From: Spirochaetota bacterium
Lineage (GTDB): Bacteria > Spirochaetota > Spirochaetia > JABEVK01
Length of the DNA: 64,000 bases
Assembly (NCBI GenBank): GCA_020049045.1
Contig: JAIFLN010000005.1
Span: 10,417 to 74,416 of the forward strand
Direction: 5' to 3'
Under the pieces are notes generated by a model that saw only the letters and a program-made list of their open reading frames with translations, was not told the origin of the DNA and made no database searches. Below, piece by piece: positions 10,183 through 64,000 of this stretch; positions within the stretch are counted from its first letter, which is position 1; each line of letters begins with the position of its first letter. A program made the translations under genes and the position numbers.

Positions 10183-10278
10183 ATTCTCCCCCTTTTCATT
10201 TTCATCGTAACACGAACCTATCCAAAGTGGTTTGTGATTTCATTGTTACGGGTTACTTTAAGATTGAGGGGAACAAAG

Positions 10279-48387: not shown

Positions 48388-49383
48388 TTACTGTGCAGCA
48401 GCGGCGGCAGGAGCAGGCTGATCAAAAGCAGCTTCTTTAGCCATCTTCTTAGTTTCCAGGGACCGAAGTACCTGAAGATTACCAAGTTTCGCCAACTCAA
48501 AGTTGCGTTCCGACTCTTCCCGAGCCTTAAGAATACCCCAAATCGCCTCATCATCGACATCGGCGTTTCTATCAACGACAGCCTGGTCATAGATGACCTT
48601 GATGTCTTTGATATAGGAAACGATGTCACCGCCATCCTGAGCTGCGTCCCGATGAATGACAATGCCCTTAAGCTTGATCATCGGAGCCGAGCGAGGATAG
48701 AGAGGAAGAACTTTGACGTCCCTGTTCCGAACTTCGGTCTGATAGTTCGGATTGTTCCATTGAAGAGCCTTCCAGCCATCGAAGTTCAGATATCCCATAA
48801 AGATTTCCTGTTCTTGGCCCAGTTCATTTTCCAGCAACAACGAAATGCTGTTGGAGAAGTTCCGTCCCAGAATATTGATCTGAATGGACTTGATCACGCC
48901 GACGTTCTTGAGAACGCCGAAGCCATCAAACTGCGAACCAGCCTTAGCGTTCTGATCGGTCGAACCTTCCAGCGTGGCATAAGCAGGGATAGTGAACGCA
49001 GGCTTGATTATCGCATACGAGTTCACACCGTAAGACGGGAAGTGAATCCGGACACCCATGACAGTCTCACCACCAAACTTGGCGGCATCCTGCTTGACGG
49101 GAGCAGCGGTAATCTGGGACAGGGTCTGGTTCTCCACGGACTGTGAAGAAGAAGCCAGTACAATTTCCCAGCTAGGAATAGCGAGGGAGATCTTCATCTT
49201 GGCCTTGTCTTCAGCACTGTAGGCTGATCCCGCCTGGCGGCTATAGTCGATGGTCGTCTGAGCGTGCAGGCCAGCATCTCCTTCGCCAATCAACTTTGAG
49301 AAATCAATGAGAGTCGCTTGTTCTGCGAAGGCACTGTTAGCCAGAAACAGGGCCACCCCCAGAATCGTGAAGAACCTTTTCAT
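48388..49383 (-). CDS. flaA: Flagellar filament outer-layer (sheath) protein FlaA
   Basis: Signal peptide MKRFFTILGVALFLANSAFA. It is about 331 aa, with the FlaA-family composition and C-terminus, a GGAG ribosome-binding site, and is the last gene of the operon. Confidence 0.75.
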   Translation of the reverse strand: MKRFFTILGVALFLANSAFAEQATLIDFSKLIGEGDAGLHAQTTIDYSRQAGSAYSAEDKAKMKISLAIPSWEIVLASSSQSVENQTLSQITAAPVKQDAAKFGGETVMGVRIHFPSYGVNSYAIIKPAFTIPAYATLEGSTDQNAKAGSQFDGFGVLKNVGVIKSIQINILGRNFSNSISLLLENELGQEQEIFMGYLNFDGWKALQWNNPNYQTEVRNRDVKVLPLYPRSAPMIKLKGIVIHRDAAQDGGDIVSYIKDIKVIYDQAVVDRNADVDDEAIWGILKAREESERNFELAKLGNLQVLRSLETKKMAKEAAFDQPAPAAAAAQ

Positions 49384-49431: not shown

Positions 49432-49905
49432 TCATCCTTTGTCAACGAGATTCACCCCAGTAGGTTCCCCCCCCACCGAGATCATCACATTCGAAACACC
49501 TGAAAAGTTGTCCATCAGCGTCGCTTTCAGGACATCCAAGGCCATTACAGGCGAATATATAACATCGGGGTCAGGATTGAAAGCCCTTTTTGACAAATCG
49601 ATGAAAGCTGTTTGCCCACGAACGAGAACTGTTCTAACCTGGGCCTCACGGGAAAACAACCGCAAGTGCTGATGCTGCGCTGGTCCAAGCAAGATTTCCT
49701 TGGTCAGGAGTTCCATATCGTGTTCCACATTTCCATTGAACGGCAAAGAACGGGCCTCAGGTACCAACTGATGGCTGATTTCTGCTGGAAATTGAAGGAC
49801 TGTTCGGACAAGATTGCCTGGGAGAACGAAATACAGCAAAAGAGATAGCAGAAACACTAAAGCAAGTGCTGCCAAGGCCCCAAGAAGTGTCCGATCAGAA
49901 GTCAT
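49432..49905 (-). CDS. GerMN-domain membrane-anchored protein
   Basis: N-terminal transmembrane helix, then ILLGPAQ...VRTVLVRGQTAFIDLSKRAF matching the GerMN core (LL.GP...V....A.VDLS..F). A 4-nt overlap with the amidase gene. Confidence 0.5.
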   Translation of the reverse strand: MTSDRTLLGALAALALVFLLSLLLYFVLPGNLVRTVLQFPAEISHQLVPEARSLPFNGNVEHDMELLTKEILLGPAQHQHLRLFSREAQVRTVLVRGQTAFIDLSKRAFNPDPDVIYSPVMALDVLKATLMDNFSGVSNVMISVGGEPTGVNLVDKG

Positions 49906-52343
49906 GGAAGGTCCTCATAATTGTGGATAAATGATTCCAGCCCATTATAGAGACCCTGGGCTAATTTCTTCAAGTAATTCGGATCGTGCAGAGACTCAGC
50001 TTCTTCGGGATTCGTGATAAATCCCAGCTCTGCCAGAACAGCAGGCATTCGTGCCATCCTTACCACAAACCAAGGGTTTTCCTTCAATCCTCTCTGGACA
50101 CTGGAGTCACCCAGCTCTTTTGCCAGCCCTCGAGCCAAATGCTCAGCCAATTCTCGGCTTTCTTTCTTGTATTCAGAATCCACCAAAGTATTCAGTACCG
50201 GAAACACCGATTCCGGAATATCGATTCCAGGAATTACCTCCCTTTCAAAATTCTGGGGGACGTACCAAAGCTCCAAGCCCCGGGCTTTTCGGTTAAGACT
50301 GGCATTGAAATGGAGGGAGAGAAAAAAAATCGATTCTTGATCTCCTAATTTCTGAGCATGGGCAATCTGCACTCTTCTTTCCAGTGTTGGGTAGGTGTCA
50401 TTCTTTCTGGTCAGCACGATAGTTCGGTCGGGATACGCCTCCGTCAGCAATTTCTGTAGTTCCAAGGCAACCGTAAGTGTCAGATCTTTTTCCCGCAGGA
50501 CGACCTCTTTTCCATCAATGGTATGGCGGCCAATGCTGCCGGGATCTGTTCCTCCGTGACCAGCATCAAGAACAAGAACTTGGATTCTTGGCCCCTGACC
50601 GGTTCGTTCAACCGTAACCGGAACTGCAGGAATCTTGGTAGGAACCGGTTGATTATTCCACCAGCTCAGCAGAGTCTGGAAGTCGGTTGAATCCAGCTGG
50701 CCAGTAATGGGGTCAAGTTTTTGGAGGGAAAACTCATCCTTTCCATCTCCCAAAGCCAATCCCGTGACCAAGTCAATTGACAGCCGGTGTCTGGTATCAG
50801 AAAGCAAAACGATGTCCCGATAGGGTTCCCAGAATACCTTAGCCCCGGTCTGCAACACCAAATCCTGAAGATTCTCGGCAAGGACAGGCGAGGCGTACCG
50901 AGCTCCACAAAGCCCCCCAACAAGCAGAGACCGCCATACGCGCTCTGTAAACTCGGAAGGTTCCATCCCTTCTTTGCGAAGGACTACCAACAAATCCTCC
51001 AAGGTGTTTCCGTAGAGATCTTTCCAGGCTCCGGCCCGAGCCCGTTCAAGCAAGCCTGCCGATGTTTCCGAGAGTCCTCGGGCTTCGGGGAACCACCAGG
51101 GGTCGGCACCCGTCCCTTGCAGAAACAATTCGGTAGCGGGATTGGGGTACTCATATTCAAAAACCACTAGGTTTCGAACCAGGCGAGCGGTTTCCTCCAC
51201 TTCCTTTGCTTGGGTACCGGCGACAATGACATTCCCCAGTTTCTCAACATTGTTACGGGGAAATACCGTTTTTGTTCCAGGAGCAACGAGAAGAAACAGG
51301 TCTTTGACACCCGGCAAGTCGCGAGCCTGATCTACTCCATGGATTGCCTTGATTCTTCCGGGCAAACCGATCCAGGCCCGTTCCGCGACTGGCAGACTAA
51401 CCTCATCAGGCTGCTTCGATAGGGGAAGTCCCAGGGCTGTTTCAACAGCCCAGAGCACTGCAGAACGCCCTGATGTCAACGGATAAGTCCAGCCAGACAT
51501 ATAGCCGCCGGAAAGACGTGAGGCTATTTCACCAATAACAGGACCCCGTGAAGGTGAGAATTTCACGTCCCCTTTCGCGGCTCCCCAATTGAGCCCCAGG
51601 GCACGCACACCCCGTTCGAATTCGTTCCAGACAGCTTCTTGGACTACCACTGGGGCCGTCGAGGGAAAAGTATGGCCAATTTCAACAAAGGTCGGAGGAA
51701 AGACAATGGTTCTGTCGGCCAACCCGCACCGGATCAGCTGCCCGTCCCGAACAATGGCATCAACGCTAAACTCCGGACCATCGATGTACTCCTCGACGAT
51801 GGCACGACCCGTCAGGGAAAAACCAACCGCATCGGCAAGGGAAGCAGGCAAATCTTCACTGCGATGGACGAGCCGGACTCCCCGGGCACCCATGCTGTCC
51901 GTCGGCTTGACTACAACAGGAAAGGGAAAGTCCAGCTTGGGAATTGTTTGCGACAACCCTTCAAAGACTTGATGCCGGGGTGAGGAAATTCCCGCTTCAT
52001 CAAAGCGGTGCCGCATCAGGCCCTTGTCCCTGGCCAGAAGGGCCGCTTCATAGGGAGTCCCAGGCAGGCCAAGATGTTCAGCAATCCAGGCTACTGTCGT
52101 AGAAAAGTCCGTACCCACGGTCAGAACACCATCCAGGCGCTGAGCCTTCTGATGGGACCGGGCTCGTTCGAGGCAACGTTCAAGGTCTTTGATGTCACAG
52201 ACTTCAAACCAATCGGCTTGGTCACGAGCCGGGGCCATGGGGTTTCCGTCAAAACAGAGTACCTTAACCCCAAGCTGATGTGCAAACTTGAGAGCCGGCA
52301 GCTGCATGACGCCACCCCCAATCAACAGCAGATGCAGACTCAT
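49902..52343 (-). CDS. Fusion protein: N-terminal ATP-grasp ligase domain plus C-terminal N-acetylmuramoyl-L-alanine amidase (Amidase_3/AmiC-type)
   Basis: ATP-grasp hallmarks: VVVKPTDSMGARGVRLV and EEYIDGPEFSVDAIV. The C-terminal part (VLDAGHGGTDPGSIG..., NASLNRKARGLE) matches Amidase_3 zinc ligands. Confidence 0.65.
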   Translation of the reverse strand: MSLHLLLIGGGVMQLPALKFAHQLGVKVLCFDGNPMAPARDQADWFEVCDIKDLERCLERARSHQKAQRLDGVLTVGTDFSTTVAWIAEHLGLPGTPYEAALLARDKGLMRHRFDEAGISSPRHQVFEGLSQTIPKLDFPFPVVVKPTDSMGARGVRLVHRSEDLPASLADAVGFSLTGRAIVEEYIDGPEFSVDAIVRDGQLIRCGLADRTIVFPPTFVEIGHTFPSTAPVVVQEAVWNEFERGVRALGLNWGAAKGDVKFSPSRGPVIGEIASRLSGGYMSGWTYPLTSGRSAVLWAVETALGLPLSKQPDEVSLPVAERAWIGLPGRIKAIHGVDQARDLPGVKDLFLLVAPGTKTVFPRNNVEKLGNVIVAGTQAKEVEETARLVRNLVVFEYEYPNPATELFLQGTGADPWWFPEARGLSETSAGLLERARAGAWKDLYGNTLEDLLVVLRKEGMEPSEFTERVWRSLLVGGLCGARYASPVLAENLQDLVLQTGAKVFWEPYRDIVLLSDTRHRLSIDLVTGLALGDGKDEFSLQKLDPITGQLDSTDFQTLLSWWNNQPVPTKIPAVPVTVERTGQGPRIQVLVLDAGHGGTDPGSIGRHTIDGKEVVLREKDLTLTVALELQKLLTEAYPDRTIVLTRKNDTYPTLERRVQIAHAQKLGDQESIFFLSLHFNASLNRKARGLELWYVPQNFEREVIPGIDIPESVFPVLNTLVDSEYKKESRELAEHLARGLAKELGDSSVQRGLKENPWFVVRMARMPAVLAELGFITNPEEAESLHDPNYLKKLAQGLYNGLESFIHNYEDLP

Positions 52344-54136
52344 GGCAGCTCCTTTGTTTTTCGGGCATAAACCTCAAACGTGTCACCCCAGCCCAACCAG
52401 CGGTCCAGCAGCGTAACAATTGATAGTACAGGATCTGAGGGTCCTTTCAGTCCGGGGAACCGCTCCGGATGATGCCCTGTAACCCGAAATGCCAACACTT
52501 CAAAACCAAAACGTCTCAGAATCGGTTTCGTATTGGCCGGATTCCATATGGAAAAGTGATCATCCGGGCTTTCTTCCCAGAATTTCTCGGGTTGAAACGT
52601 TCTGGTGATTCCCTTTCCATTGGGCGTGGAAAAGGCAAACAGACCTCCGAGAGGGAGCAGTTTATTGACCTGGCTGAGCACGGCTGACAGATCGGGAAAA
52701 TGTTCAATGACATACCAAAGCGAAACAAGATCGGGGCGGGTTACCCCTGGAAAAGACTCTTCCCATCGGAACTCCAAAAAAGAGGCCTTGACCGCTGGAA
52801 ATCCAAGTGAGTCCCGAACATAGGCTACCGCAGCTTCTGCGACATCGAGGCCGAAAGGATGATGCCCCGAGGCCGCAGCCGCTGCCAGGAACGGACCGTA
52901 GGCACAGCCGACATCCAGAATATTCCTGCCGACACTCGTACCAGCCGTACGATCAAGAAACTCCAACCGCTGCTGCCCTAAAGCCTGAATGTGAGCAAAG
53001 TCTTGTAGGTAGGTCTTTCCATACTGCTTTTGATAATCTTCAAAGAAATACGCTTCTGAGTATTCTTTGGGAGGTAGTTGGTGGGCCGAGAGATACTCCA
53101 TTCCACAAACGGCACAACGATGGTAACTCTTATGATGGCTTCGGAAGAAAACAGCATTGCCGCCAGTTCGGCATACTGGGCAACGGCTGTCGGTACCACG
53201 AAAGGTTGAAAAATACTCTCCTGCATTGAGAGGCTCTTGCAGCAACTTCGTAAAAGCTTCGCGCGCGGCACCCTGGGCATCTTCCAAACCGGAAAGAAAC
53301 GCATCGGCTCGGGGTCTGCGTACACCAAAAGTGGGAAGTCTAGCGGCGCGTGAAAGCTGTTCATGATAATTGGTGGGATTCAAAAGCAGGACGGGAGTTC
53401 CGGCAGCCAAGCTTTCCAAAGCGGTCAATCCCCACGAGGTAACCGTCAGATCCCATTGACCAAGGAGTTTGGGAAGCTCGGGCGGAGCTTCCAGCACTTC
53501 GGTATCCAGCGGAACGATAAATCGCGAAAGCGGCCCGCGGACGACAGTCAAAGAATACGGGAACCTCCCCTGTGTGCGAAGGGTCTGAACCATGGCTAGG
53601 AACTTCAACGTCAACCCGGCAGGATCAGAACCACCGAAAACAGCCAGCATGGTTCGGATTGGTCTATCGTAACGGTGCGGTTTGGGAGGAAAAGACAGAC
53701 CGAGGAGGCCTGGAAGACGCACATTGGGTTCAGGCTTTGTATCGTGTGGAAGCGAGTCTACCAGAAACGCAAACCGCCTCCGGGCAGGTCCCCCGTCATC
53801 CCACCCTATCAAATGCAAGGTCCGACGGGAAAGAAGGGAAAAAGCCGATAACGGTGCAGCCTGCATGTCGAGAACTGCTTTGGGAGCAATATAGGATTCC
53901 GGCCATTTCATCCAGAGTTGAACACCGGCAGAATCCGCCAGGCTCTGAACAATGGACCGCTCAAATACCGGGTGCTTTCCGACAAAGGCAGAGTCGGCTG
54001 CAAAATAGACCACCGCCTGGGGTCCAACCGAGGCCGCAGCCGCCAAACAGCGGCGCAAATGCCCCATGCCTCTATCGATTCTGAGGCTGGGAATAAAAAC
54101 CAACTCTGGTGTCAGCGCGGATGTCGGTTCAACCAT
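52340..54136 (-). CDS. Fusion protein: PseG-like nucleotide-sugar hydrolase (GT28/MurG-like fold) plus zinc-ribbon class I SAM-dependent methyltransferase
   Basis: N-terminus RIDRGMGHLRRCLAAAAS and later FGGSDPAGL match the PseG motifs IGxGHxxRxLxLA and GGTD. The C-terminal part has CPVC...CAVCG and the methyltransferase motif I ILDVGCAYGPF. Confidence 0.6.
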   Translation of the reverse strand: MVEPTSALTPELVFIPSLRIDRGMGHLRRCLAAAASVGPQAVVYFAADSAFVGKHPVFERSIVQSLADSAGVQLWMKWPESYIAPKAVLDMQAAPLSAFSLLSRRTLHLIGWDDGGPARRRFAFLVDSLPHDTKPEPNVRLPGLLGLSFPPKPHRYDRPIRTMLAVFGGSDPAGLTLKFLAMVQTLRTQGRFPYSLTVVRGPLSRFIVPLDTEVLEAPPELPKLLGQWDLTVTSWGLTALESLAAGTPVLLLNPTNYHEQLSRAARLPTFGVRRPRADAFLSGLEDAQGAAREAFTKLLQEPLNAGEYFSTFRGTDSRCPVCRTGGNAVFFRSHHKSYHRCAVCGMEYLSAHQLPPKEYSEAYFFEDYQKQYGKTYLQDFAHIQALGQQRLEFLDRTAGTSVGRNILDVGCAYGPFLAAAAASGHHPFGLDVAEAAVAYVRDSLGFPAVKASFLEFRWEESFPGVTRPDLVSLWYVIEHFPDLSAVLSQVNKLLPLGGLFAFSTPNGKGITRTFQPEKFWEESPDDHFSIWNPANTKPILRRFGFEVLAFRVTGHHPERFPGLKGPSDPVLSIVTLLDRWLGWGDTFEVYARKTKELP

Positions 54137-54783
54137 GGGATCAGGTCCTCCACTTCGAGGGGCTTGCCCCGGTAAAGATCGGTCCAAAGGGACCGCAGAT
54201 ACTGAAGATCATCCGGTGTATCAAGGGTCACCCTGGCTGCAGGTGCCCGCAACGCTTCTGCAACTGCCGGGTGGTTGATATGAAAACGCTCCGGTCGGCG
54301 GTACAGAAAGGGGCTTGCGTGTTCCTGCTCATACTCGTCGGGGTCCGATGACCAAGCCTCTTCGAGAGCACTTACCTTCAGAACTTCGACACCAGTCCCA
54401 ATGGGGGAACCCACAAAGCCGCTGTAATCTGCGCCGCTGGCAAGATGCAGCTCCAGGAGCTCGTTGGCTAGTCGGGCTGAAACCAAGGGATTGTCACCGG
54501 TGGCACGAACAACGGTGCTGGTTCCTATCGAACGGGAAGCTTGGACAAAGCGGTCCAGAACATTTTGTTTGTTGCCGATGTAAATTTCCCAGCCTGCTGA
54601 GCGGGCAAGGGGTTCAAGTTCGCCGGCACTCTCAGGTTCCGTGACCAACACTCGCCGGTCAACACGCACGGCGGCAAGAGCTTCAATGCAGCGTTGCGTA
54701 ACAGAAGTTCCACCCAAGTCGGCCAAGGCCTTGCGTGGGAGACGTGTCGAGTCCAGACGAACCTGCAAAAACACAGCGGTCAC
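54112..54783 (-). CDS. Cytidylyltransferase, SpsF/PseF/KdsB-like (CMP-sugar synthetase family)
   Basis: N-terminal FLQVRLDSTRLPRKAL matches the IIxARxxSTRLPGKxL motif. 223 aa, typical for PseF/SpsF. GTG start. Confidence 0.6.
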   Translation of the reverse strand: MTAVFLQVRLDSTRLPRKALADLGGTSVTQRCIEALAAVRVDRRVLVTEPESAGELEPLARSAGWEIYIGNKQNVLDRFVQASRSIGTSTVVRATGDNPLVSARLANELLELHLASGADYSGFVGSPIGTGVEVLKVSALEEAWSSDPDEYEQEHASPFLYRRPERFHINHPAVAEALRAPAARVTLDTPDDLQYLRSLWTDLYRGKPLEVEDLIPWLNRHPR

Positions 54784-55733
54784 AAGTTCCCCCAGAGCTC
54801 AGACAACAGTCTGGCATCAGTCTGAAACCGGTAACGGTGAGTTTTTACCCACGCACGCTCATTCAGAAATTCGGCCAGACTATCGCTAAAGGAACGGCCG
54901 CTGCGCCTCGCATGAGCCCAAAACCGGATCATTGGAAGCACTCCATGATCTCCTAGATGTCGTACCGCCAAATTCCGAAGATAAAACCGGGAATAGGAAC
55001 GGTCAGGGGTTTGATCTTCGGAGGGAACTTCCGAGCGGTAGTCCACTTTGAACCCTCGGTCCACTACCAGTCTTTCACCCCAAAGGTGGCTTCTGACTCC
55101 CCAGTCCACTTTTTGCCAGAAAGGATTGCCGAGCGCTTGGTCATACCCGCCCGTTGCCAAAAATTTTCCGCGGTTGTAGAGACCGGTATAGTCGGATGCA
55201 AAAAGAGTATCCACGTTTTCCTGGTCGGTACCCAAGGTAAGGATCTTGAGACGATCCTTCTCAAGAGTAGGGACTTGAACGCAGGGAAGTTCATATCCCT
55301 CCCTATCGCGCATTTCGGGAACCATGACCAAGAAAGAAAAGTCCTGCCACAGACGTTGGACCTTCGAATGCAGTCCTGTTTCTGACAGGGATTGATCGTC
55401 CCACAAAACCAAAAACCGGTCTCCTCGAATTTCCCTTGCCGCCAAATTGATCCTCACTCCCGGTGTCGCGGGCTCTGATAGAACCAGAAAACGCAGACCA
55501 GGGAGGTCGCCTAGCAGTTTCTCGGCATCAAAACGGGGACTTTCCTGTTCGATACAAAGAATTTCTGGAAAACCGAGGGAATGAAATTCCGTTAGTACCG
55601 AAGGCCGGAAAAGCGCCGGCCCACGCCCCAGAACAACCAATGAAACCCGAAGTTCAAAGCGGCTGGTCGTGCCTTCGGGTGCTCTGCTGCCCAGGATGGA
55701 GTAGGATTCAGAAATGAAAGGTGTACCACTCAT
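54780..55733 (-). CDS. Hypothetical protein (about 317 aa), possibly a glycosyltransferase-like orphan in the flaA operon
   Basis: Long ORF overlapping both neighbours. The internal Met at 55733 leaves a 26-nt overlap with the upstream gene. Only a weak DxD-like WDDQS. No confident family. Confidence 0.35.
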   Translation of the reverse strand: MSGTPFISESYSILGSRAPEGTTSRFELRVSLVVLGRGPALFRPSVLTEFHSLGFPEILCIEQESPRFDAEKLLGDLPGLRFLVLSEPATPGVRINLAAREIRGDRFLVLWDDQSLSETGLHSKVQRLWQDFSFLVMVPEMRDREGYELPCVQVPTLEKDRLKILTLGTDQENVDTLFASDYTGLYNRGKFLATGGYDQALGNPFWQKVDWGVRSHLWGERLVVDRGFKVDYRSEVPSEDQTPDRSYSRFYLRNLAVRHLGDHGVLPMIRFWAHARRSGRSFSDSLAEFLNERAWVKTHRYRFQTDARLLSELWGNL

Positions 55734-57150
55734 CGCAATTCCTGCAGACCTCGGGCCAGTCTTCCTTGACATGCCGCTCAAACAGCCTATCTCCCCGATC
55801 CCAAACAGCCGAAAGTTCCTCTGTCCAGGCATTGCCCAGGGGCTGAGTCCGATGAAAGTCGTCCCGACAAACGACCACCGTTCCATCAAGAAAGACCGCC
55901 AAGTCACGGGCGAGGTGCCAGCAGGCATGCCGTTTCCAAGGAGAAAGATCCGACGGTTTGGCGCGGTCAAGTCTTCCTCCAAAATCGTTATGCTTCTGAA
56001 TGATGACTCTGCCGGCTTCCTCTTTCCAATGCCGGTGAAAAGCCTCCATCTCGTTTTCATTCTCACCCATTCGCACTGTCTGAGGCCAAACCCTGGAAGG
56101 AAATAGCGCAATCAGCCGGCGGGTAAAAGCCTGAGCTTCTTCCAGACCGTTACCACGAAGTTTCTGATAGGTTTCCGCAACATCAGAATCGAGCTCAACA
56201 ATCCAGTCGAGGTTGGTTGGATGCCTCGCGGCCAAAGAATCGAGATCTACCTTTCCCCAGCCCAAACCAGAGGTTTCCAGGCACAAATGCAGGCCAGGCT
56301 TTGCCAAAGCGTCAGTCATCAATTCCAGAATTTCAGGATGAAGAGAAGGTTCTCCCCAAAAGGACGGCATGACAGTCAGATCTCCAGCCCAAGCCAGAGC
56401 CTGGTCCAGAAGATTGTTCCACCGTTGACGGGAAAGCGTGTTTCTCCGGGTCAGAGCATCAGGGTTTATTTGTTTCAGAGGTGACCAGATTGGTATCTGG
56501 CGCACCCCATCCGTGATTTGAACAAGAAGTGTGGCGGGCAAGGTCCGAGACCGATCGGCGGTAACATCGAGAACATCCAAAAAACCCTTGGTATCGAGGC
56601 TGACCTCCCCAAGGTAGCGGTCAAGAAGAATTCGGTTGCGGCGGGAATCGGCTGTCAGACTGAGCCGACGGGAACGCAGATCCACTGGGCTGAGCTGGGT
56701 TTCGATATCAAACCTGTTGATATCGACAGAGAGAAGCTGAAACAGCGACTCACGGGTGACTGGCCCACCTTTATCGGCTGCCCATCCTGCCAAAAGAGGG
56801 AGGATGGACGGACGGAGAATTTCGGCGGTCAAACCTATTGGATAGCCATCTGCAAAAGTATAGTCAGCCCGGTATTCACGATGAAGTGCCCGCATTTGAT
56901 GGAGAACATCAATGCGCAAGAAAGGGCTGTCATCAACAGCAAGCACCAGTTCATCAAACCCCTCGGAGATCGACTGCAAAGCCGATACAAGGTCAAGGCA
57001 GCTGAGAAACGGCCCCAAAGATTTCCGAGGCACACCAGGAGCGGCCTGATCGAGAGCGTCAGACACCCAATCAGCCACACTGCGGTTGCCCAGAGGACGG
57101 TCGGGGTCAACGACCGGTTGAAACGACAACAAGACACAGAGAGTGTTCAT
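55708..57150 (-). CDS. Spiro-SPASM-like protein: N-terminal cytidylyltransferase-like domain, a radical-SAM-like core lacking CxxxCxxC, and a C-terminal SPASM-like Cys cluster
   Basis: Central FWGEPSLHPE resembles the radical-SAM GGEPLLHP motif, but no CxxxCxxC is present. The C-terminus (ACWHLARD...VVVCRDDF...EVCRNCDEW) is SPASM-like. The N-terminal 150 aa are nucleotidyltransferase-like. Confidence 0.5.
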   Translation of the reverse strand: MNTLCVLLSFQPVVDPDRPLGNRSVADWVSDALDQAAPGVPRKSLGPFLSCLDLVSALQSISEGFDELVLAVDDSPFLRIDVLHQMRALHREYRADYTFADGYPIGLTAEILRPSILPLLAGWAADKGGPVTRESLFQLLSVDINRFDIETQLSPVDLRSRRLSLTADSRRNRILLDRYLGEVSLDTKGFLDVLDVTADRSRTLPATLLVQITDGVRQIPIWSPLKQINPDALTRRNTLSRQRWNNLLDQALAWAGDLTVMPSFWGEPSLHPEILELMTDALAKPGLHLCLETSGLGWGKVDLDSLAARHPTNLDWIVELDSDVAETYQKLRGNGLEEAQAFTRRLIALFPSRVWPQTVRMGENENEMEAFHRHWKEEAGRVIIQKHNDFGGRLDRAKPSDLSPWKRHACWHLARDLAVFLDGTVVVCRDDFHRTQPLGNAWTEELSAVWDRGDRLFERHVKEDWPEVCRNCDEWYTFHF

Positions 57151-57203
57151 TTTGATTCATCATCCCGAGATTTCTTGTCTTTGGCAAGGAAAAAAGCTAG
57201 GAT

Positions 57204-58418
57204 GTGGCCATGTTGGCCCCCCGTGGTGTCTTGACGGTTTCAGAGCTCACCAGTGTCGTAAAAGAAATTCTCGAGGGGGGATTCTCCTCGGTGACTGTCG
57301 AGGGAGAGATTACAGGACTGAGGTCTACCTCTGGTAAGCATCTCTACTTTTCGCTCAAAGATGAGACCTGTCTTTTGAAGGCGGTTTGGTTTTCCTGGGC
57401 CAGCCGCAGTGACAAACCACCCGCTGAGGGGCAGCAAGTCAGAATCACCGGCCGTCTTACTGTATATGAGGCTCAGGGTGTGTACCAATTGGTTGTCACC
57501 TCTCTGGAAGCCGTCGGTCTGGGAGACCTCCTGGCACGTTTGGAGCGCTTGAAAAAGAGTCTCGAAGCGGAAGGACTGTTTGACCCTTCGCGAAAGAGAG
57601 CCCTGCCTCCCTACCCCAGCGTCATCGGTTTGGTTACCAGTCCTACAGGTGCCGCTGTTCAAGATATGCTGCGCATCTTCCAAACCACGGGTCTTCCTGC
57701 CGTGATCAGAGTCTTTCCCGTGGCAGTCCAAGGCACCGAAGCCCCTGGTCAGATTGCTGCTATGGTGCGCTATGCCGGTACACGGCAACTAGCCGATGTT
57801 TTGGTTGTAGGCAGAGGCGGGGGCTCGGTGGAGGACCTTTTGGCCTTCAGCGATGAACGGGTTGTCCGTGCTATTGCAGAGTGTACCTTGCCTGTAATTT
57901 CTGCCGTAGGACATGAAATCGACTCCCCGTTGTGCGACTTCGCGGCTGACTGGCGTGCACCGACCCCCACGGCTGCGGCCGAACTGCTGTCACGCTCCTG
58001 GATGGCAGTGGATCAGAACCTGGCTCAGCTCCGGAGTGACCTTGAAGCAGGGATTCAAGGTCGTCTTGACCGGGCCCGTCTCACTCTTGCCGATTATCGC
58101 TCCGACCGGCTTCGGGAATCGTTTCAGCGGGTTCTCCAGCCCTATTACCAGCGTTTTGATTTTGCCAAAGACTCGCTGAAACAAGCATGGACAGACAGAG
58201 TGACAGATTTGAAGCGGCGGGTAGAGCTCAGCCGTTCGACACTGGAAGCCTTGAACCCCTATGCGGTATTGGAACGGGGATACGCCCTCGTCACTGACAC
58301 AGAGGGAAAGGCCGTTCAGGCAGCTTCTGGCCTGATCAAGGGTCAAGCACTTAACCTACGCTTTCATGACGGCCGGACGCGTGTCCAGGTCGAGGAGGTC
58401 CTGGATGAAGAACTTTGA
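57204..58418 (+). CDS. xseA: Exodeoxyribonuclease VII large subunit
   Basis: N-terminal OB-fold LTVSELTSVVKEILEGGFSSVTVEGEITGLRSTSGKHLYFSLKD. Confidence 0.85.
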   Translation: MAMLAPRGVLTVSELTSVVKEILEGGFSSVTVEGEITGLRSTSGKHLYFSLKDETCLLKAVWFSWASRSDKPPAEGQQVRITGRLTVYEAQGVYQLVVTSLEAVGLGDLLARLERLKKSLEAEGLFDPSRKRALPPYPSVIGLVTSPTGAAVQDMLRIFQTTGLPAVIRVFPVAVQGTEAPGQIAAMVRYAGTRQLADVLVVGRGGGSVEDLLAFSDERVVRAIAECTLPVISAVGHEIDSPLCDFAADWRAPTPTAAAELLSRSWMAVDQNLAQLRSDLEAGIQGRLDRARLTLADYRSDRLRESFQRVLQPYYQRFDFAKDSLKQAWTDRVTDLKRRVELSRSTLEALNPYAVLERGYALVTDTEGKAVQAASGLIKGQALNLRFHDGRTRVQVEEVLDEEL

Positions 58419-58656
58419 AGAACGACTCAACCGGTTGGAACAGCTGACCCAACTTGTTAAAGCCCCGCAGACCCCGCTTTCTGAAGCTGTCACGAGTTTT
58501 GAAGAAGGTTTCAAGCTGGCACAAACCCTTGAGAAAGACCTGGAAAAAATGGAACGACGTGTCGAAATTCTCCTCAATCCGCCGTCCACTGGAAGCACGC
58601 CCTCTGAGGCTGATCCTACCTTTGATTTGTTTAACGATCTGCCGAAACTCCCTTAA
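58405..58656 (+). CDS. xseB: Exodeoxyribonuclease VII small subunit
   Basis: MKNFEERLNRLEQLTQLV... coiled-coil. It overlaps the xseA stop. Confidence 0.8.
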   Translation: MKNFEERLNRLEQLTQLVKAPQTPLSEAVTSFEEGFKLAQTLEKDLEKMERRVEILLNPPSTGSTPSEADPTFDLFNDLPKLP

Positions 58657-59089
58657 GCTGATCGAGAGAAATACGGTCGCCCACTTTGACGCCTTTTTTT
58701 GAGAACACCCCTTGTTTGACTTCAAGGGCAAAGGTGACAGCATACCGGCTCGCCACCGGAGCCAGGCTGAAGGCTTCCATATCGAGAATCTCCTTGATAA
58801 CCCCTTGCTTGTTGATATACGCGATCGACAAGGGTGTGGGGGTATCTTTCATCCAAAAAGTTCGTGTGGCCTCATCAGGAAAGACAAACAACATGGCTTG
58901 GTCTTCAGTGAGGTCGGTCCGGCCCATCAGTCCACGTTCCCTCGTTTCCGGAGTCGAGGCAATCTGGGTCAAAAAGGTCACGCTCCCCACCTGGACCGAA
59001 CGGGTTTCCACGGTCTGGCCTGTACAGGAAGCTATGATAAACAAGAGCGCGGACAAGATCAGGACGTAGAATCGGTAAAATCGGTTCAT
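58631..59089 (-). CDS. DUF192-family lipoprotein
   Basis: Lipobox LFIIASC, then RERGLMGRTDL...MLFVFPD...FWMKDTPTPLSIAYIN, which matches the DUF192 core. Confidence 0.6.
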   Translation of the reverse strand: MNRFYRFYVLILSALLFIIASCTGQTVETRSVQVGSVTFLTQIASTPETRERGLMGRTDLTEDQAMLFVFPDEATRTFWMKDTPTPLSIAYINKQGVIKEILDMEAFSLAPVASRYAVTFALEVKQGVFSKKGVKVGDRISLDQLKGVSADR

Positions 59090-59098
59090 GGGTTCTCC

Positions 59099-59629
59099 CT
59101 AAAAATTATCGAGAAACTTTTCTCTGGTTACAGATTGTAGCGCTTGCTGCGCCCGCCCTTCCTGTTGAAACCTTTGAAAAAGCGGCATATCGATGTACTT
59201 GACGGTCAGTGGCTTTTCGAGAGACAGACGGACAGCGGCGCTTTCCCAACGGGCTGACGTCGGGTCAAGGGCAGAAGGCTCACCGTATTTTTTGCTAAGC
59301 GATGTGTACATGGCAAAATAGTCGAGTTGTTCTGGGTTGAGCTCCAAAGTGATGCTGTAGAGTCTTCCTTCTACAACTTGAAAAACACCTCGGGTAAAAT
59401 AGGTCAGACCGGGCACGTCGATGAGATTGGTATTGGGACGATTGAGAAGGGTCACATCAGGTTCACCGGAATACAGGAAAAAAGAATTGTTTATCAGGGC
59501 GGATTTCAACTCTTCGAGGTTCATCCCGAGGCGAAATACATCGAATCCCGGGTTCAAGGCTGTCTGCGCCGGCAATTGCGCTAGCCCTAGAAAACAAAAC
59601 ACGAGCATCAAGAGCCATCGTCTCATCAT
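59099..59629 (-). CDS. Hypothetical secreted protein (176 aa)
   Basis: Signal peptide MMRRWLLMLVFCFLGLAQLPAQ. Confidence 0.45.
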   Translation of the reverse strand: MMRRWLLMLVFCFLGLAQLPAQTALNPGFDVFRLGMNLEELKSALINNSFFLYSGEPDVTLLNRPNTNLIDVPGLTYFTRGVFQVVEGRLYSITLELNPEQLDYFAMYTSLSKKYGEPSALDPTSARWESAAVRLSLEKPLTVKYIDMPLFQRFQQEGRAQQALQSVTREKFLDNF

Positions 59630-59916
59630 TCACCTCTCAAGAACCAGAAAATTCCAACGGATACAATCAGAAAGATCAGCAGGACCACCATCACCGGAGC
59701 GAAGAGCGGTTGCCGTGCGGTTGCCTGAACTTGCGGTGCCGCCAAGTACCGACACTGAGGACAACCGTCGGAAAAAGCCCTTGGGGAACCTTGGTGTCCG
59801 CACCGGGGACAGCGGACCGCATCAAAGACCTTACCACAGGAGGGACACAACGTGGCGTGAAGTTCAACGGCTGCCGAACAATGGTCACAGGTGAACGTCG
59901 ACAATACTTTTTTCAA
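59626..59916 (-). CDS. Zinc-ribbon protein with a C-terminal transmembrane anchor
   Basis: Two CxxC pairs (CDHC...CPSCG and CPRCG...CPQC) plus a C-terminal hydrophobic helix. Confidence 0.5.
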   Translation of the reverse strand: MKKVLSTFTCDHCSAAVELHATLCPSCGKVFDAVRCPRCGHQGSPRAFSDGCPQCRYLAAPQVQATARQPLFAPVMVVLLIFLIVSVGIFWFLRGE

Positions 59917-60827
59917 GGCAATTCTCCTAAGGAAAAAGAGGAGAGCTCAAAAGACCTCGTTATGTTGTTTTCGGTCACCAAGAGAACCCAGCTGGAACGA
60001 GCAGCCAACCAAGCATTGGCCTCACCTGAGGGAAACCGATCCCAGGGAAGCCAGGCCTCGAGGTCGGTGTTGTCCAGCACAGACCAACCGACGGCAAGGG
60101 GTGAAGCTCCTTCTACCCATGACCAGAGAACCCTATCACTTCCTGTCAGTGGCCACTCTAAAAGAGCACCAGGACGGCGCAACCCCAAAGAAACAGAAAT
60201 CCCGGCCGGTAAGGTCTTCCAGGATCGGTCTGCCGTGAAGCGGATCCAGAAGGCTCCTTCACGGCTGACAGCTCGAAGTGCCTTTGGTAGCGGCCAAGTC
60301 TTGCTCCAGGGTTGATTTCCTGGCAAGAAGGAAGAACCCCATTCGAGAACAGCTCCTACCTTTGCCCAGTCCTCAAAACTACCGTCCAAGGCATATTGGG
60401 GCACCGTCAGCCCCCAAGCCTGCAATGCACCAGAAAGAACCCGCCCCCGGTTGGCAGCCGCAAAAGAAATCCTGTCGACGAGGAGGGTTCCTTTCGATGG
60501 CACCTCTTCAGGCAATAAAACCCCTCCCTTGAGAAGGGTTCTGTAAGTCAGTGTTTCTTTCCAAGGAAGGAAAACCCCGGCCAGGTACTGCTGAGATCCA
60601 AGAACAATCTTCACCCTTTCACCAGGCGCTACGGGATGGCGGCCAGTGGTGGCCATGGGTAGGAGTGAGAGAATCTCAGTTGAGGGCCTCGAGAAACTGC
60701 CCTCCAAAATCCAGTAGTCAAAAACGGCGTCTGTATCCGTGTTACGCAACCAGAAGGCAGTATCAGCCACCACCATGGATGAGCCCATAAGGAAGAACAG
60801 AAAGCACAGAACATGGCTGCGAGTCAT
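59913..60827 (-). CDS. Hypothetical secreted protein (304 aa)
   Basis: Signal peptide MTRSHVLCFLFFLMGSSMVVA. Trp-rich, no known motif. Confidence 0.4.
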   Translation of the reverse strand: MTRSHVLCFLFFLMGSSMVVADTAFWLRNTDTDAVFDYWILEGSFSRPSTEILSLLPMATTGRHPVAPGERVKIVLGSQQYLAGVFLPWKETLTYRTLLKGGVLLPEEVPSKGTLLVDRISFAAANRGRVLSGALQAWGLTVPQYALDGSFEDWAKVGAVLEWGSSFLPGNQPWSKTWPLPKALRAVSREGAFWIRFTADRSWKTLPAGISVSLGLRRPGALLEWPLTGSDRVLWSWVEGASPLAVGWSVLDNTDLEAWLPWDRFPSGEANAWLAARSSWVLLVTENNITRSFELSSFSLGELP

Positions 60828-63800
60828 TTTTTCCGAATTGCCAGCAAGGTAAGATCGTCAAACTGGTTGTCTTCCTTCATATGGGCATATCGTATATAAC
60901 CGGGATTGGAATATTCACGTGTCCCACCTTCTAACTTGTACCCTTCCGGACTGACAGAGTCACCCTTCGAGATATCCCCCTTGACCCAAAGTTTGACTCT
61001 TTGCCCGTCGACCAGTTTGTAACCCTCCGCATCGCGGAGATCTTTTCCGTTACGGTCTGCCCTTTGACATTCCTGGACGCGCTCACCATCGACAAGCCTA
61101 AAGCCTTCAGCGTCAACGGTGTCGCCTTTCGAGGCCACACCCCTCTGCCATATTGGAATTGGTACAGCTCCCGCGAGAAAGTAGCCTTTGGCATCCATGT
61201 TCTCTTTCTGGGGAATGGCTTGCCGGTAGGTCATAAACCCGTTCTTGAAGTACTGGTCGAATTCTTTGAAATGCTTTTTGAGAAATTCGTTTTCGACCAG
61301 GTCAAGGTCGATGAAGTCAAACTCTTCGGCTTTGGGGTCGGGAACCAGCCGGAAAATCCGGTCGATGGAAATCAGCGCCAAAACCAATCCGCGGGCGGAA
61401 TCATCACAGGAACCAAAATCGAAATGATACTCGACTTCAGGATGAAGCCAGTTCTGCTTCACCAAGGTATAGGGTTGACGGTGTTGGTAGGCTTCAATGA
61501 TCGCCTCCATCCGCTCGGGCCCAAAATCTTCCACATCCTTGGCCTGAACCTCGCGCATCGGTCCGCCTTCGAACACAGGAACTCTCTTTCGAGCTCCGGG
61601 GACTGCGACCGTGGTGGGGTCTACCGGATCAAAGTAGGCGATCTGCTGCCAGTTTTTGTCCCGATAAGCAGACTGGCTCTCTTCGATACCGTCAGTGAAG
61701 TACAACAGCGTGTCACCAGGAAACAGTTGCAACTTTTGATTGCGGTACCGAATCTGATGGTATTTGGAAGAATCAAGTCCCGCCGGCGCGGTCTTCTCGA
61801 GCTGCATCAGTTCAAAATGAGCAGGTTTGTCTGAGGAGGCGGCCCTCCAGAGGTGAAGTAGGTTGTCCCCAGCCTGACTGAACTGCAGTTCTCCGGTCAT
61901 CGTATTGAGAATACCAATGTTCAAGGCAGCGAACTTCTGCGCTCCGGTTTCGGCGAGGATGGGCTCAAGATTATCGTTGATGCTATTGAGAATTTCGTCT
62001 ATTTTTGTTTTTCTTCCATCCTTCGCTTCAGTCCAGCGCCGGAAGAAATTTGTAACAAAGGCAGCGGCAATGGTCATGGCGAGAAGAGATTCGACCCCTT
62101 TGCCGGAGATGTCCCCTTTCATAATGCCATACCAAGGGGAGTTGAGGTTCTTACCTTCCTTGGTATCCAGTTGTCGAAATTCGTAAAGGTCACCGGAGAC
62201 GGTCTTGGCACCTTCGTAGTAGGCATACACCTCGACCCCATCGAGGTCACGTCCATACGTGGTCATTTTGTTGCCTGCGGCATCTTTATCAAGTGAAATA
62301 AAATAGGTCTTCTGCAGGCCTTTGGCTCCGGCCATTTCCTTGCTCTGTTTGGCACCTTTGACCAGACTATGGGTCATTTCATTGACTGTCGAGGCCAATT
62401 CCGCCAACTCGTCACGGGTTCGAACGTCGATGAGATGACCGTCCAGTTGGGACTTGTCATCGGTATCCCGAATTTTGGCAACTCCGCTTGAAAGCTTCCG
62501 GATCGGGTTGATTGTCAGAGCAGAAAGAACAAATGCACCGACCAAACCAAGGGTCAGGGCGATCAAGGCAACGATCGCGGTCACCAGAATCAATTGATCC
62601 CGGCTTGCTGTGATCTGTTTTTCGATGGTTTCTGAGGAGACCTCAATGCGGATCAAACCCCGTACATAAGTAGGGTCTCCCAGGGTCAAATAGAGGAAAG
62701 GCTGATAGAAAAGGTATTTTTTCTCTTGGGAAGCGGCAAGATTCTGGATGTTGAAGGTTGGGTAAGTCCGGGCTTTGCCGCCGATTTCGGCCAGTTTGGT
62801 GATAACCTGACGTTTCAAGGCAGAGATTTGATCGTCGTATTGTTTGACAAGCCGGCGCGAGGCATCGTCATTCTTTGTAGCCAGCGGGAGTGCTTCTTTG
62901 GAAAGAGACTCAATCTGCCGGGCCATATCACCGACTGCCAATTCGGCTTGCTGATTGAGCTCTGCTTGAAGGGTCAACCAGAGGGGCTCAACCTGGTCGC
63001 TCAAAAGAGTCACACCGGGGATCAAGGTGTCCGTATCGGTTTTCGCTTTTAAATCCGGGTCATTCGAAGCATAAACATAGGACAATCCGGGTTTCTTCTC
63101 ACTGCTTGGACCGGTGATCGTAGCATAGAGAGCCTCGCCTTCCATGGCGGAAATCTGCTGGGGAAGGAATCCAAGTTCCTGAGTGTTGGAGGTAGGCAGA
63201 TAGGTACGTGCCCCGGTTGCCAGACTTTCCAGAAGAACTTGAGTCCGTTGCTGTAGAGCCGTTCCCAAGGTCAGCTGGGAGTTCTGCGTGATGAAAAACC
63301 CGAGAGTCAACGACAGCATGAGGATGACAGCCCCCGTCAGACCCAAGATCGAAATTGCAAATTTGACGGTTAGGCTGAGGCCCTTGGTCTTCATAACGGT
63401 ACTCCCGGCCCGACGGGCCCACTTATCAGCATTATCGGCAAACAACGACCGGGCCTGACGGTCCAGGCGGTTTCTTTCCACAAGGGCCACTGCAAGAAGG
63501 CGGGCTGACCCCAAAGCAATCAGAACAAGAAGCACCATAAGTGTCCAAAAGTAAACTGCATGGACAGAGAAGAAGAAGGTGATTCCTTCGAAGAACTGCC
63601 AGACCGTTCTGTCCAAATTTCGATAGTCGCCAATCTTGACTGTTCCAGTCGGCTCCACTTTCAACAGCGGTTGTGTAAAGACTCTGCCACGTTCCGGATG
63701 GCTCACGCCGATACGGTAAATTCCTTCAGCAAGACCTTCGACCTTGATACCGTCAACCAACCGATCGGAGGCAAGATGAAACGCACCTGGGCCTAGGTCA

Positions 63801-64000
63801 TAGTCGAAGGGTGCCTGACCATCCCGGTCAATGTACACATGATCCAAAGGACCACTGGCGGTGAACCCTCGTCCGTGAATGGCAATCTCGACCCGCCCGA
63901 AGGCATCCTGCCGGGTGTCGACATATTGGATAACCGTATACGGGCGGAATTTATTGAGCCGGAAATAATGGGTCGATACGGGTCCGCGGTTTCCGGCTTC
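60824..64000 (-). CDS. Membrane sensor phosphatase with a periplasmic domain, HAMP and a PP2C/SpoIIE Ser/Thr phosphatase domain. The N-terminus lies outside the window.
   Basis: HAMP helix (...LTINPIRKLSSGVAKI...DELAELASTVNEMTHSL). PP2C motifs KGDISGKGVESLLAMTIA and LLYFTDGIEE. The reading frame stays open to position 64000. Confidence 0.7.
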   Translation of the reverse strand, partial: EAGNRGPVSTHYFRLNKFRPYTVIQYVDTRQDAFGRVEIAIHGRGFTASGPLDHVYIDRDGQAPFDYDLGPGAFHLASDRLVDGIKVEGLAEGIYRIGVSHPERGRVFTQPLLKVEPTGTVKIGDYRNLDRTVWQFFEGITFFFSVHAVYFWTLMVLLVLIALGSARLLAVALVERNRLDRQARSLFADNADKWARRAGSTVMKTKGLSLTVKFAISILGLTGAVILMLSLTLGFFITQNSQLTLGTALQQRTQVLLESLATGARTYLPTSNTQELGFLPQQISAMEGEALYATITGPSSEKKPGLSYVYASNDPDLKAKTDTDTLIPGVTLLSDQVEPLWLTLQAELNQQAELAVGDMARQIESLSKEALPLATKNDDASRRLVKQYDDQISALKRQVITKLAEIGGKARTYPTFNIQNLAASQEKKYLFYQPFLYLTLGDPTYVRGLIRIEVSSETIEKQITASRDQLILVTAIVALIALTLGLVGAFVLSALTINPIRKLSSGVAKIRDTDDKSQLDGHLIDVRTRDELAELASTVNEMTHSLVKGAKQSKEMAGAKGLQKTYFISLDKDAAGNKMTTYGRDLDGVEVYAYYEGAKTVSGDLYEFRQLDTKEGKNLNSPWYGIMKGDISGKGVESLLAMTIAAAFVTNFFRRWTEAKDGRKTKIDEILNSINDNLEPILAETGAQKFAALNIGILNTMTGELQFSQAGDNLLHLWRAASSDKPAHFELMQLEKTAPAGLDSSKYHQIRYRNQKLQLFPGDTLLYFTDGIEESQSAYRDKNWQQIAYFDPVDPTTVAVPGARKRVPVFEGGPMREVQAKDVEDFGPERMEAIIEAYQHRQPYTLVKQNWLHPEVEYHFDFGSCDDSARGLVLALISIDRIFRLVPDPKAEEFDFIDLDLVENEFLKKHFKEFDQYFKNGFMTYRQAIPQKENMDAKGYFLAGAVPIPIWQRGVASKGDTVDAEGFRLVDGERVQECQRADRNGKDLRDAEGYKLVDGQRVKLWVKGDISKGDSVSPEGYKLEGGTREYSNPGYIRYAHMKEDNQFDDLTLLAIRKK

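Follow-up and report, generated by a model that had tools for sequence, protein, structure and literature searches.

The best solved relative of the protein considered here is BtrN (PDB 4M7T/4M7S), a radical S-adenosylmethionine (SAM) dehydrogenase of butirosin biosynthesis. The radical SAM triad of BtrN is also present in all of the nucleotide-sugar or peptide SPASM/Twitch enzymes that we compared (BlsE, DesII, anSME, SuiB, SkfB, and PqqE), and three of these, anSME, SuiB, and PqqE, hold two accessory clusters on a seven-Cys SPASM motif. Closest of all is the curated NCBIfam family TIGR04321 ("spiro-SPASM protein"), for which we found neither a dedicated paper nor a characterised member in the searched literature. 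Here, we describe a spiro-SPASM protein gene (55708..57150; 480 amino acids and a stop codon) in a stretch of 64,000 nucleotides from a Spirochaetota bacterium (assembly GCA_020049045.1, contig JAIFLN010000005.1, positions 10,417 to 74,416), hereafter called the window; coordinates are window positions, and the spiro-SPASM gene, its parts, and the genes downstream of it lie on the minus strand. The original prediction described the product as a spiro-SPASM-like protein with a nucleotidyltransferase N-domain, a radical SAM core lacking its cysteine triad, and a C-terminal SPASM-type cluster, leading a flagellar sugar-modification operon.

The family assignment held. The gene product is a bona fide member of the Spirochaetota-specific family TIGR04321, scoring 441.7 bits (E 3.3e-132) against a curated cutoff of 250, with residues 53-480 covering profile positions 77-510, so the profile search did not lead to an unrelated family. 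It shares with the family the full-length match, the three-part architecture, the restriction to Spirochaetota, and the gene neighbourhood; its N-domain is slightly shortened, the profile match beginning at residue 53, and nothing else sets it apart, as its Cys-less state is that of around 44% of the unique sequences sampled. Pfam PF13186 (SPASM) matched residues 410-473 with 30.3 bits (gathering threshold 21.5), and PF04055 (Radical SAM), which many Cys-bearing homologues do match, gave no match at E <= 0.1. The open reading frame (ORF) is complete, with in-frame stops directly upstream of its ATG. An identical sequence has already been deposited in NCBI and JGI, where dozens of homologues carry the label "spiro-SPASM protein". 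Thus, the family and its architecture are already catalogued and automatically annotated, and the object is not new as a kind, contrary to the oddity that the original prediction implied; its statement that the function is unexplained agrees with our literature searches.

When one genome was scanned for each GTDB species, at least 585 relatives were confirmed, of which 80 species-level loci were kept for the synteny and overlap counts given below, all 80 titled as Spirochaetota lineages or unclassified metagenome-assembled genomes. An exhaustive profile search gave 568 representatives (50% identity clusters) at E <= 1e-30. A second homologue search, with alignment A1, gave essentially the same proteins as the first, and a third, made with a Treponema-labelled alignment, gave 1227 matches, with no named cultured species among the 120 listed. 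The family is conserved across Spirochaetota, always in the same gene order, and annotations suggest that even Treponema pallidum, with its reduced genome, has a member.

The core and its lost cluster site

An AlphaFold2 model built from a 50-sequence alignment (pLDDT 94.1, pTM 0.90) divides the protein into three: a cytidylyltransferase-like fold at the N-terminus, a partial radical-SAM barrel, and an iron-sulfur domain at the C-terminus. The middle part (approximately residues 201-400; 55951..56550) has the partial (beta/alpha)6 TIM-barrel fold of the radical SAM superfamily. BtrN was both the top Foldseek match of the model and the first PDB match for the family profile (E 4.9e-14), with the barrel and the C-terminal domain both aligned. 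Structure prediction, Foldseek, and the PDB profile thus agree on a BtrN-like barrel, and the radical-SAM-type core that had been predicted is retained as a fold. Shared with BtrN are the abridged barrel and a C-terminal four-Cys single-cluster domain in which the CxxC and the preceding Cys align, and we count the carbohydrate-like small molecule that serves as the BtrN substrate as a further likeness. Unlike the spiro-SPASM protein, BtrN has the CxxxCxxC motif, cleaves SAM, and has no nucleotidyltransferase-like N-domain, and the identity between the two is only around 13-17%.

As predicted, no CxxxCxxC or relaxed variant is present in the protein, nor in any of the six frames of 55400-57500. 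The seven Cys of the protein are found at positions 5, 51, 290, 410, 428, 469, and 472, and the first three are not kept outside its close clade. Alignment with homologues places the degenerate cluster loop, DGVRQIPIWSP, at residues 214-224 (56479..56511), where homologues that keep the triad read GCPQACSYCP; the alignment is gapless there, and the loop holds no Cys. A frameshift hiding the motif could be ruled out, given the lack of a motif in any frame, the gapless alignment, and the more than 60 close homologues that share the Cys-less loop. We also rejected a 788-aa homologue from an ENA assembly of the same organism (P0113) as a natural fusion: it is a frameshifted assembly of the same gene that, after residue 409, follows an alternative frame (ORF 54780-56111) into the GT-A-like protein encoded next. 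As a separate observation, Cys290 (LCLETSG; 56281-56283) is kept in the Cys-less clade of our protein down to around 56% identity and occurs neither in more distant Cys-less relatives nor in Cys-bearing members.

The GGE-like motif was correctly recognised in the original prediction: it reads FWGEPSLH at residues 264-271 (56338..56361), and its WGEP is kept in both Cys-bearing and Cys-less members of the family. Our protein retains WGEP and has Glu319 (56194..56196), at the end of beta4 (WIVELD), in place of a Ser that tracks the triad family-wide. Because the three cluster Cys and this coupled Ser are both gone, the protein, as far as can be judged from its residues, cannot cleave SAM reductively or perform radical SAM chemistry. 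It has the least chance, of all the explanations considered, of still being a radical SAM enzyme whose cluster sits on non-canonical ligands or comes from a partner subunit. The retained GGE motif would fit such an activity, as would the few members in which a non-canonical spacing (Cx8CxxC) coexists with Ser319, but the aligned loop of our protein holds no Cys, its Cys 5, 51, and 290 are unconserved beyond the close clade, Ser319 has been replaced, and no extra gene was seen in Cys-less as compared with Cys-bearing loci among the 80 loci, so that we regard this explanation as poorly supported.

The C-terminal region (residues 401-480; 55711..55950) is recognised as a Twitch-type accessory Fe-S domain by Cys conservation, the BtrN alignment, and PF13186. 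Its Cys are C410 (55921-55923), C428 (55867-55869), C469 (55744-55746), and C472 (55735-55737), spaced C-x17-C-x40-C-x2-C, with C410 located 18 residues upstream of C428; this is the four-Cys BtrN-type Twitch pattern (C-x~18-C ... C-x2-C). When the family profile was aligned to PDB sequences, C428, C469, and C472 fell on three Cys of the BtrN C-terminal domain, which we take to be its Twitch-cluster ligands Cys188, Cys232, and Cys235. The seven-Cys SPASM pattern (CX9-15GX4C ... CX2CX5CX3C ... C; TIGR04085 / PF13186) of anSME, SuiB, and PqqE is absent: only four Cys are present, and the chain ends eight residues after C472, for which reasons we rejected a full two-cluster SPASM domain in favour of a single-cluster Twitch-type site. 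Thus, of the predicted SPASM-type cluster, an accessory single-cluster site remains, of the four-Cys Twitch type found in BtrN and not a full SPASM. Judging from the Cys pattern, the domain most likely holds one [4Fe-4S] cluster.

The four Twitch Cys are invariant in alignment A1 and are retained in 148 of 151 representatives, regardless of whether the triad is there, which makes them the most universally retained feature of the family. Such retention, together with a conserved overlap with the next gene (described below) that suggests a stoichiometric partnership, would be expected if the protein were an Fe-S redox or oxygen sensor whose lone Twitch [4Fe-4S] cluster gates the activity or stability of partner glycosylation enzymes. 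Nevertheless, we consider a sensor quite improbable: it would leave the conservation of around 400 residues of N-domain and barrel unexplained, the protein has no regulatory domain, and the Twitch cluster of BtrN is reportedly fully Cys-ligated and buried, which is untypical of a sensor.

Triad loss across the family

The first 109 homologues showed the close clade of our protein to be without the triad, and most relatives at around 40% identity read CPQACSYC at the aligned site. The combined set comprises 321 unique full-length members: 175 with a canonical CxxxCxxC, 6 with a non-canonical three-Cys site, and 140 without the triad. Given that 140 of 321 members lack the triad and the other 181 (175 and 6) keep a three-Cys site, its loss, as read from these sequences, is lineage-specific and recurrent and not a property of the whole family. 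Thus, the predicted loss of the triad is real in our protein, although it is a state shared with 140 of the 321 members and not special to it.

On a neighbour-joining tree of the 321 members, at least 25 Fitch parsimony state changes are required, and a loss-only reading gives 36 separate all-Cys-less clades; the tree was built without the motif columns and without support values, so the exact number of changes is soft. The loops that replace the motif differ widely (GVRQIPIWSP, GVTQAVSYSP, GEIQRPFYLP, QDVHEVSYSP, and others), and such different replacement sequences argue for many independent loss events. Loss is also nearly all-or-none, since in the first set of 179 sequences the non-motif sites hold either no Cys (62) or one (4), and never two. 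The six non-canonical members (P0171, P0210, P0211, P0222, P0233, and P0239) carry three-Cys loops such as CPKNRTGSCHLCP (Cx8CxxC) and have kept Ser319, which suggests that they have functional radical SAM sites with unusual spacing.

The residue at position 319 follows the triad closely, being Ser in 173 of 181 Cys-bearing and in 5 of 140 Cys-less members. In MoaA/SPASM-class enzymes, the VSLD-type "ribose motif" contains a Ser that contacts SAM, and by analogy, Ser319 probably does the same. Its release upon triad loss supports the view that the Cys-bearing members are real radical SAM enzymes and that the Cys-less members have given up radical chemistry. We found no description of the mosaic triad loss or of its coupling to Ser319 in the searchable literature, and we consider both to be modest but publishable observations.

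In Cys-less members, position 319 is occupied by Glu (62) or Asp (12) and otherwise by almost anything. This acidic residue, present in 74 of the 140 Cys-less members from several separate lineages and only once among the 181 Cys-bearing members, raises the possibility that the protein has become a neo-functionalised non-radical enzyme in which a carboxylate in place of Ser319 supports an acid-base or metal-dependent activity on the same substrate. The barrel-region polar residues (E292-T-S-G, D321, R332, Q357, R360, E365, and K386) are still conserved, which would fit such an enzyme. However, many Cys-less lineages have A, L, G, F, K, Y, or C at this position, so an acidic residue is not required, and we found no new invariant residue specific to all Cys-less members. 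We thus regard neo-functionalisation as unlikely, although it deserves more weight than the sensor explanation.

Most of what surrounds the lost site has been maintained. After sequence weighting, all other strongly conserved positions are equally conserved in the Cys-bearing and Cys-less groups, both in the N-terminal part (D74-x-P76, ADGYPxG, DINxFDIET, R202, P205, and Q211) and in the rest of the protein (WGEP, ETSG, D321, Y328, R332-G333, Q357, R360, E365, W375, K386, P404, R407, and the four Twitch Cys). When pairs matched for N-domain divergence are compared, the core of Cys-less pairs lies around 1-5 identity points below that of Cys-bearing pairs in deep comparisons and above it in shallow ones. 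The Cys-less clade of our protein, at 48-74% identity to it, keeps all family-conserved residues, and within this clade, the core is more conserved than the N-domain. As the other conserved positions, the core identity, and the Twitch Cys are all maintained, the gene, on this comparative evidence, is under purifying selection and is not a decaying pseudogene.

One source of constraint other than the function of the protein has to be considered. The 3′ end of the gene overlaps the start of the next gene by 26 nt (55708..55733), an arrangement that is the same in 77 of 77 related loci and in which the ATG of the next gene sits within the D473-E474 codons of the conserved tail CDE(W/Y)YTF. This dual coding may account for part of the conservation of the tail, and the constancy of the overlap argues strongly that the two genes are translationally coupled and that their products are stoichiometric partners. 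One could therefore imagine a decaying relic kept solely because the next gene starts within it, which has indeed lost both its catalytic triad and the coupled Ser. Yet the overlap could constrain only the last nine codons, and the ORF is intact, the family-conserved residues persist throughout the clade, the core is conserved there beyond the N-domain, and the fold is predicted with high confidence; a relic is thus very improbable and, like cryptic radical activity, poorly supported.

Four elements make up the resulting evolutionary pattern: the triad has been lost repeatedly, a Ser is coupled to it, the Twitch site is universal, and so is the 26-nt overlap with the glycosyltransferase-like gene. 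We consider this pattern, which has been read from sequences, to be interesting and testable. The family amounts to a natural experiment in which the radical SAM cluster has been lost many times with the remainder under selection, and it is a tractable system in which to ask what remains for a radical-SAM fold to do once its cluster is gone.

The N-domain, the overlapping gene, and a proposed role

The cytidylyltransferase-like N-terminal domain (approximately residues 1-200; 56551..57150) has a counterpart within the same gene cluster. The gene at 54112..54783 encodes a cytidylyltransferase of the SpsF/PseF/KdsB type (CTP_transf_3; PF02348, 84 bits) with an intact RLDSTRLPRK loop, and the N-domain aligns along nearly all of this neighbour (hhalign probability 92%) and has the nucleotidyltransferase (GT-A-like) fold. 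Enzymes of this type (PF02348; PDB 6OEW, from Leptospira) carry an R-x-x-S-x-R-L-P-x-K loop that the N-domain is without: residues 1-22 read MNTLCVLLSFQPVVDPDRPLGN where the neighbour has VRLDSTRLPRK, the phosphate-loop region itself being LLSFQPVVDPDR, and no conserved basic residue was found in this region across the family. The N-domain falls below the Pfam threshold for cytidylyltransferases of this type, and a match to NTP_transf_3 (PF12804) reached 16 bits against a cutoff of 27, so that neither the N-terminal Arg/Lys loop for nucleoside triphosphate phosphates nor a profile match above threshold is present.

We read the N-domain as a paralogue of the SpsF-like cytidylyltransferase encoded nearby, one that arose by duplication and became a catalytically degenerate nucleotide-binding module. 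Since the Arg/Lys phosphate-binding loop is missing, the N-domain probably serves for binding and has no transferase activity, and we rejected an active cytidylyltransferase on the same grounds. Thus, the predicted nucleotidyltransferase domain stands as regards its fold and its paralogy to the neighbour, and probably falls as regards activity.

The overlapping gene encodes a 317-aa, probably glycosyltransferase family 2-like, GT-A-like protein (54780..55733), its start being set by the conserved overlap. The protein in the window itself has no family match, and its profile gave nothing significant against the PDB; weak Glycos_transf_2 matches were found in 5 of 25 orthologues. The gene is syntenic in nearly all of the 80 loci.

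Taken together, these observations lead us to favour, with evenly divided confidence, a role for the spiro-SPASM protein as a non-radical nucleotide-sugar-binding partner of the GT-A-like protein in a conserved glycoconjugate pathway. The ancestor would have been a three-part enzyme that combined a degenerate cytidylyltransferase-like module, duplicated from the neighbouring SpsF-like gene, with a radical-SAM barrel resembling that of BtrN and, for a single accessory [4Fe-4S] cluster, a four-Cys Twitch domain. In the lineage of our protein, the three cluster Cys and the beta4 Ser would then have been lost, with the fold, the Twitch Cys, and the polar residues of the barrel being kept, so that the protein would now work without radical chemistry and with a ligand pocket that is predicted to be intact. 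The ligand would probably be a CMP-activated (cytidine monophosphate-activated) sugar, the partner would be the product of the overlapping gene, and the other members of the pathway would be the cytidylyltransferase, a GT-B-like/methyltransferase fusion, and an ATP-grasp/amidase fusion. Where relatives have kept the triad, radical tailoring of the same substrate would be an added, dispensable step. We infer the Fe-S occupancy, the nucleotide-sugar ligand, the complex with the GT-A-like protein, and the cellular target, which could be flagellin or another envelope glycoconjugate.

Several points weigh against a non-radical binding partner of this kind. The acidic residue so frequent at position 319 could mean new catalysis and not mere binding, and Cys-less members could still bind SAM or a related ligand, given that they conserve the GGE motif, a beta2 element whose usual role is to bind the amino group of SAM. 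The nucleotide-sugar ligand is deduced from the ancestry of the N-domain and from neighbouring genes, among which the PseG match of the fusion protein (TIGR03590) is weak, at 24.9 bits against a cutoff of 153.55. Moreover, we found no nonulosonic-acid synthase, aminotransferase, or other nonulosonic-acid biosynthesis gene in the 64-kb window, and no biochemical or genetic study of any family member in the searched literature.

A broader proposal, which we put forward as doubtful though somewhat less so than neo-functionalisation, is that the core function of the whole family is not radical chemistry. The family would then constitute a new class of Fe-S proteins, in which the barrel, the Twitch domain, and the dead cytidylyltransferase would together form a nucleotide-sugar-handling subunit, translationally coupled to a glycosyltransferase, with the radical SAM site as an optional tailoring module that has been discarded dozens of times. 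If this is true, and if the pathway builds the unusual acylated, O-methylated nonulosonic acid of Treponema flagellin, the state of the triad would predict glycan structure across spirochetes.

Gene neighbourhood and a possible flagellar connection

In essentially all 80 loci, the gene order is xseA/xseB (divergent), the spiro-SPASM gene, the gene for the protein of around 320 aa, CTP_transf_3, the PseG-like/methyltransferase fusion, and the ATP-grasp/Amidase_3 fusion, with GerM and flaA following in most of the loci that reach far enough; the later junctions overlap by 4 nt. In the window, the first fusion (52340..54187; Methyltransf_23, 71 bits) joins a PseG-like/GT-B-like region to a SAM methyltransferase through a Cys-rich linker, and its true start is probably a later ATG at around 54136. 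The linker of this 615-aa protein is a four-Cys zinc-ribbon-like segment (CPVC...CAVC) located between the GT-B-like region and the class I SAM methyltransferase. The second fusion (49902..52343) joins an ATP-grasp, L-amino-acid-ligase-like part (LAL_C2, 62 bits; ATP-grasp_4) to an N-acetylmuramoyl-L-alanine amidase (Amidase_3, 148.9 bits). It is followed by the gene for a GerM-domain protein (49432..49905; PF10646, 30.8 bits); across Spirochaetota, both this 813-aa ligase/amidase fusion and GerM are kept in their place between the glyco-genes and flaA.

The gene for the periplasmic flagellar sheath protein FlaA lies at 48388..49383 (PF04620, 293 bits). It has a perfect sigma-70 promoter (TTGACA-16-TATAAT) at 49445-49418, overlapping the GerM stop codon, an AAAGGAG Shine-Dalgarno sequence followed by an ATG at 49383, and a strong terminator at 48371-48341; the positions of the promoter, the Shine-Dalgarno sequence, and the ATG indicate that the listed start (49419) is 12 codons too long. 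From these signals, flaA probably has a transcript of its own in addition to one from read-through. The flaA gene of T. denticola (TDE1712) shares a transcript with the four ORFs upstream of it, made from a sigma-70 promoter in front of TDE1716, and within this cluster the authors termed it an orphan flagellar gene (PMC9481697).

The types of enzyme encoded by the pathway, namely a cytidylyltransferase, GT-A-like and GT-B-like proteins, an O-methyltransferase-type domain, and an ATP-grasp ligase, would fit the making and transfer of a CMP-activated, acylated, methylated acidic sugar, an analogy that we offer as a hypothesis only. The flagellins of T. denticola carry 2-methoxy-4,5,6-trihydroxyhexanoyl-nonulosonic acid (PMC13439194). 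Again only as a hypothesis, the methoxy group, the amide-linked acyl chain, and the 3-deoxy position of this glycan would need such activities, possibly with a BtrN/AprD4-like radical step among them. If the pathway does serve flagellin or envelope glycosylation, it would be relevant to spirochete motility and surface antigenicity.

In T. pallidum, the SPASM protein TPASS_0285 adjoins genes that were found to fuse on resequencing, giving TP0284_285, TP0286_287, and TP0288_289 (PMC4403809, PMC3265458). From annotation and locus numbering, T. pallidum appears to keep the same core as these three genes. The cytidylyltransferase of this species, TP0288, which is presumably annotated as spsF, also seems to be fused to the PseG-like/methyltransferase protein (TP0288_289). 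By locus numbering, the core (TP0284-0289) appears not to be adjacent to flaA, which we take to be TP0249. Searches of the literature with the locus tags BB0662-0667, TDE1714-1719, and TP0285-0289 returned nothing beyond incidental mentions.

The prediction that the gene leads a flagellar sugar-modification operon thus stands in part. The gene does head a conserved gene order whose downstream genes are sugar-nucleotide- or glycosyltransferase-like and which ends next to flaA in most loci, but "flagellar" is a deduction that has to be set against the separate flaA promoter, the apparent distance between the core and flaA in T. pallidum, and the lack of nonulosonic-acid genes in the window. Judged by the amidase and GerM genes, the cell wall is as good a candidate as flagella, and a flagellar target of the pathway is plausible but unproven.

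Two further observations concern more distant parts of the window. Upstream of the spiro-SPASM gene, the region 57204-63847 is syntenic in many spirochete genomes and includes xseA/xseB, DUF192, three small hypothetical proteins (176, 96, and 304 aa), and a 1007-aa HAMP and SpoIIE/PP2C phosphatase membrane protein. At 10234-14613, on the plus strand, a gene encodes a 1459-aa protein with many FlgD_ig / Big_13 Ig-like repeats and a C-terminal OmpA domain, which is probably a large periplasmic or peptidoglycan-anchored protein.

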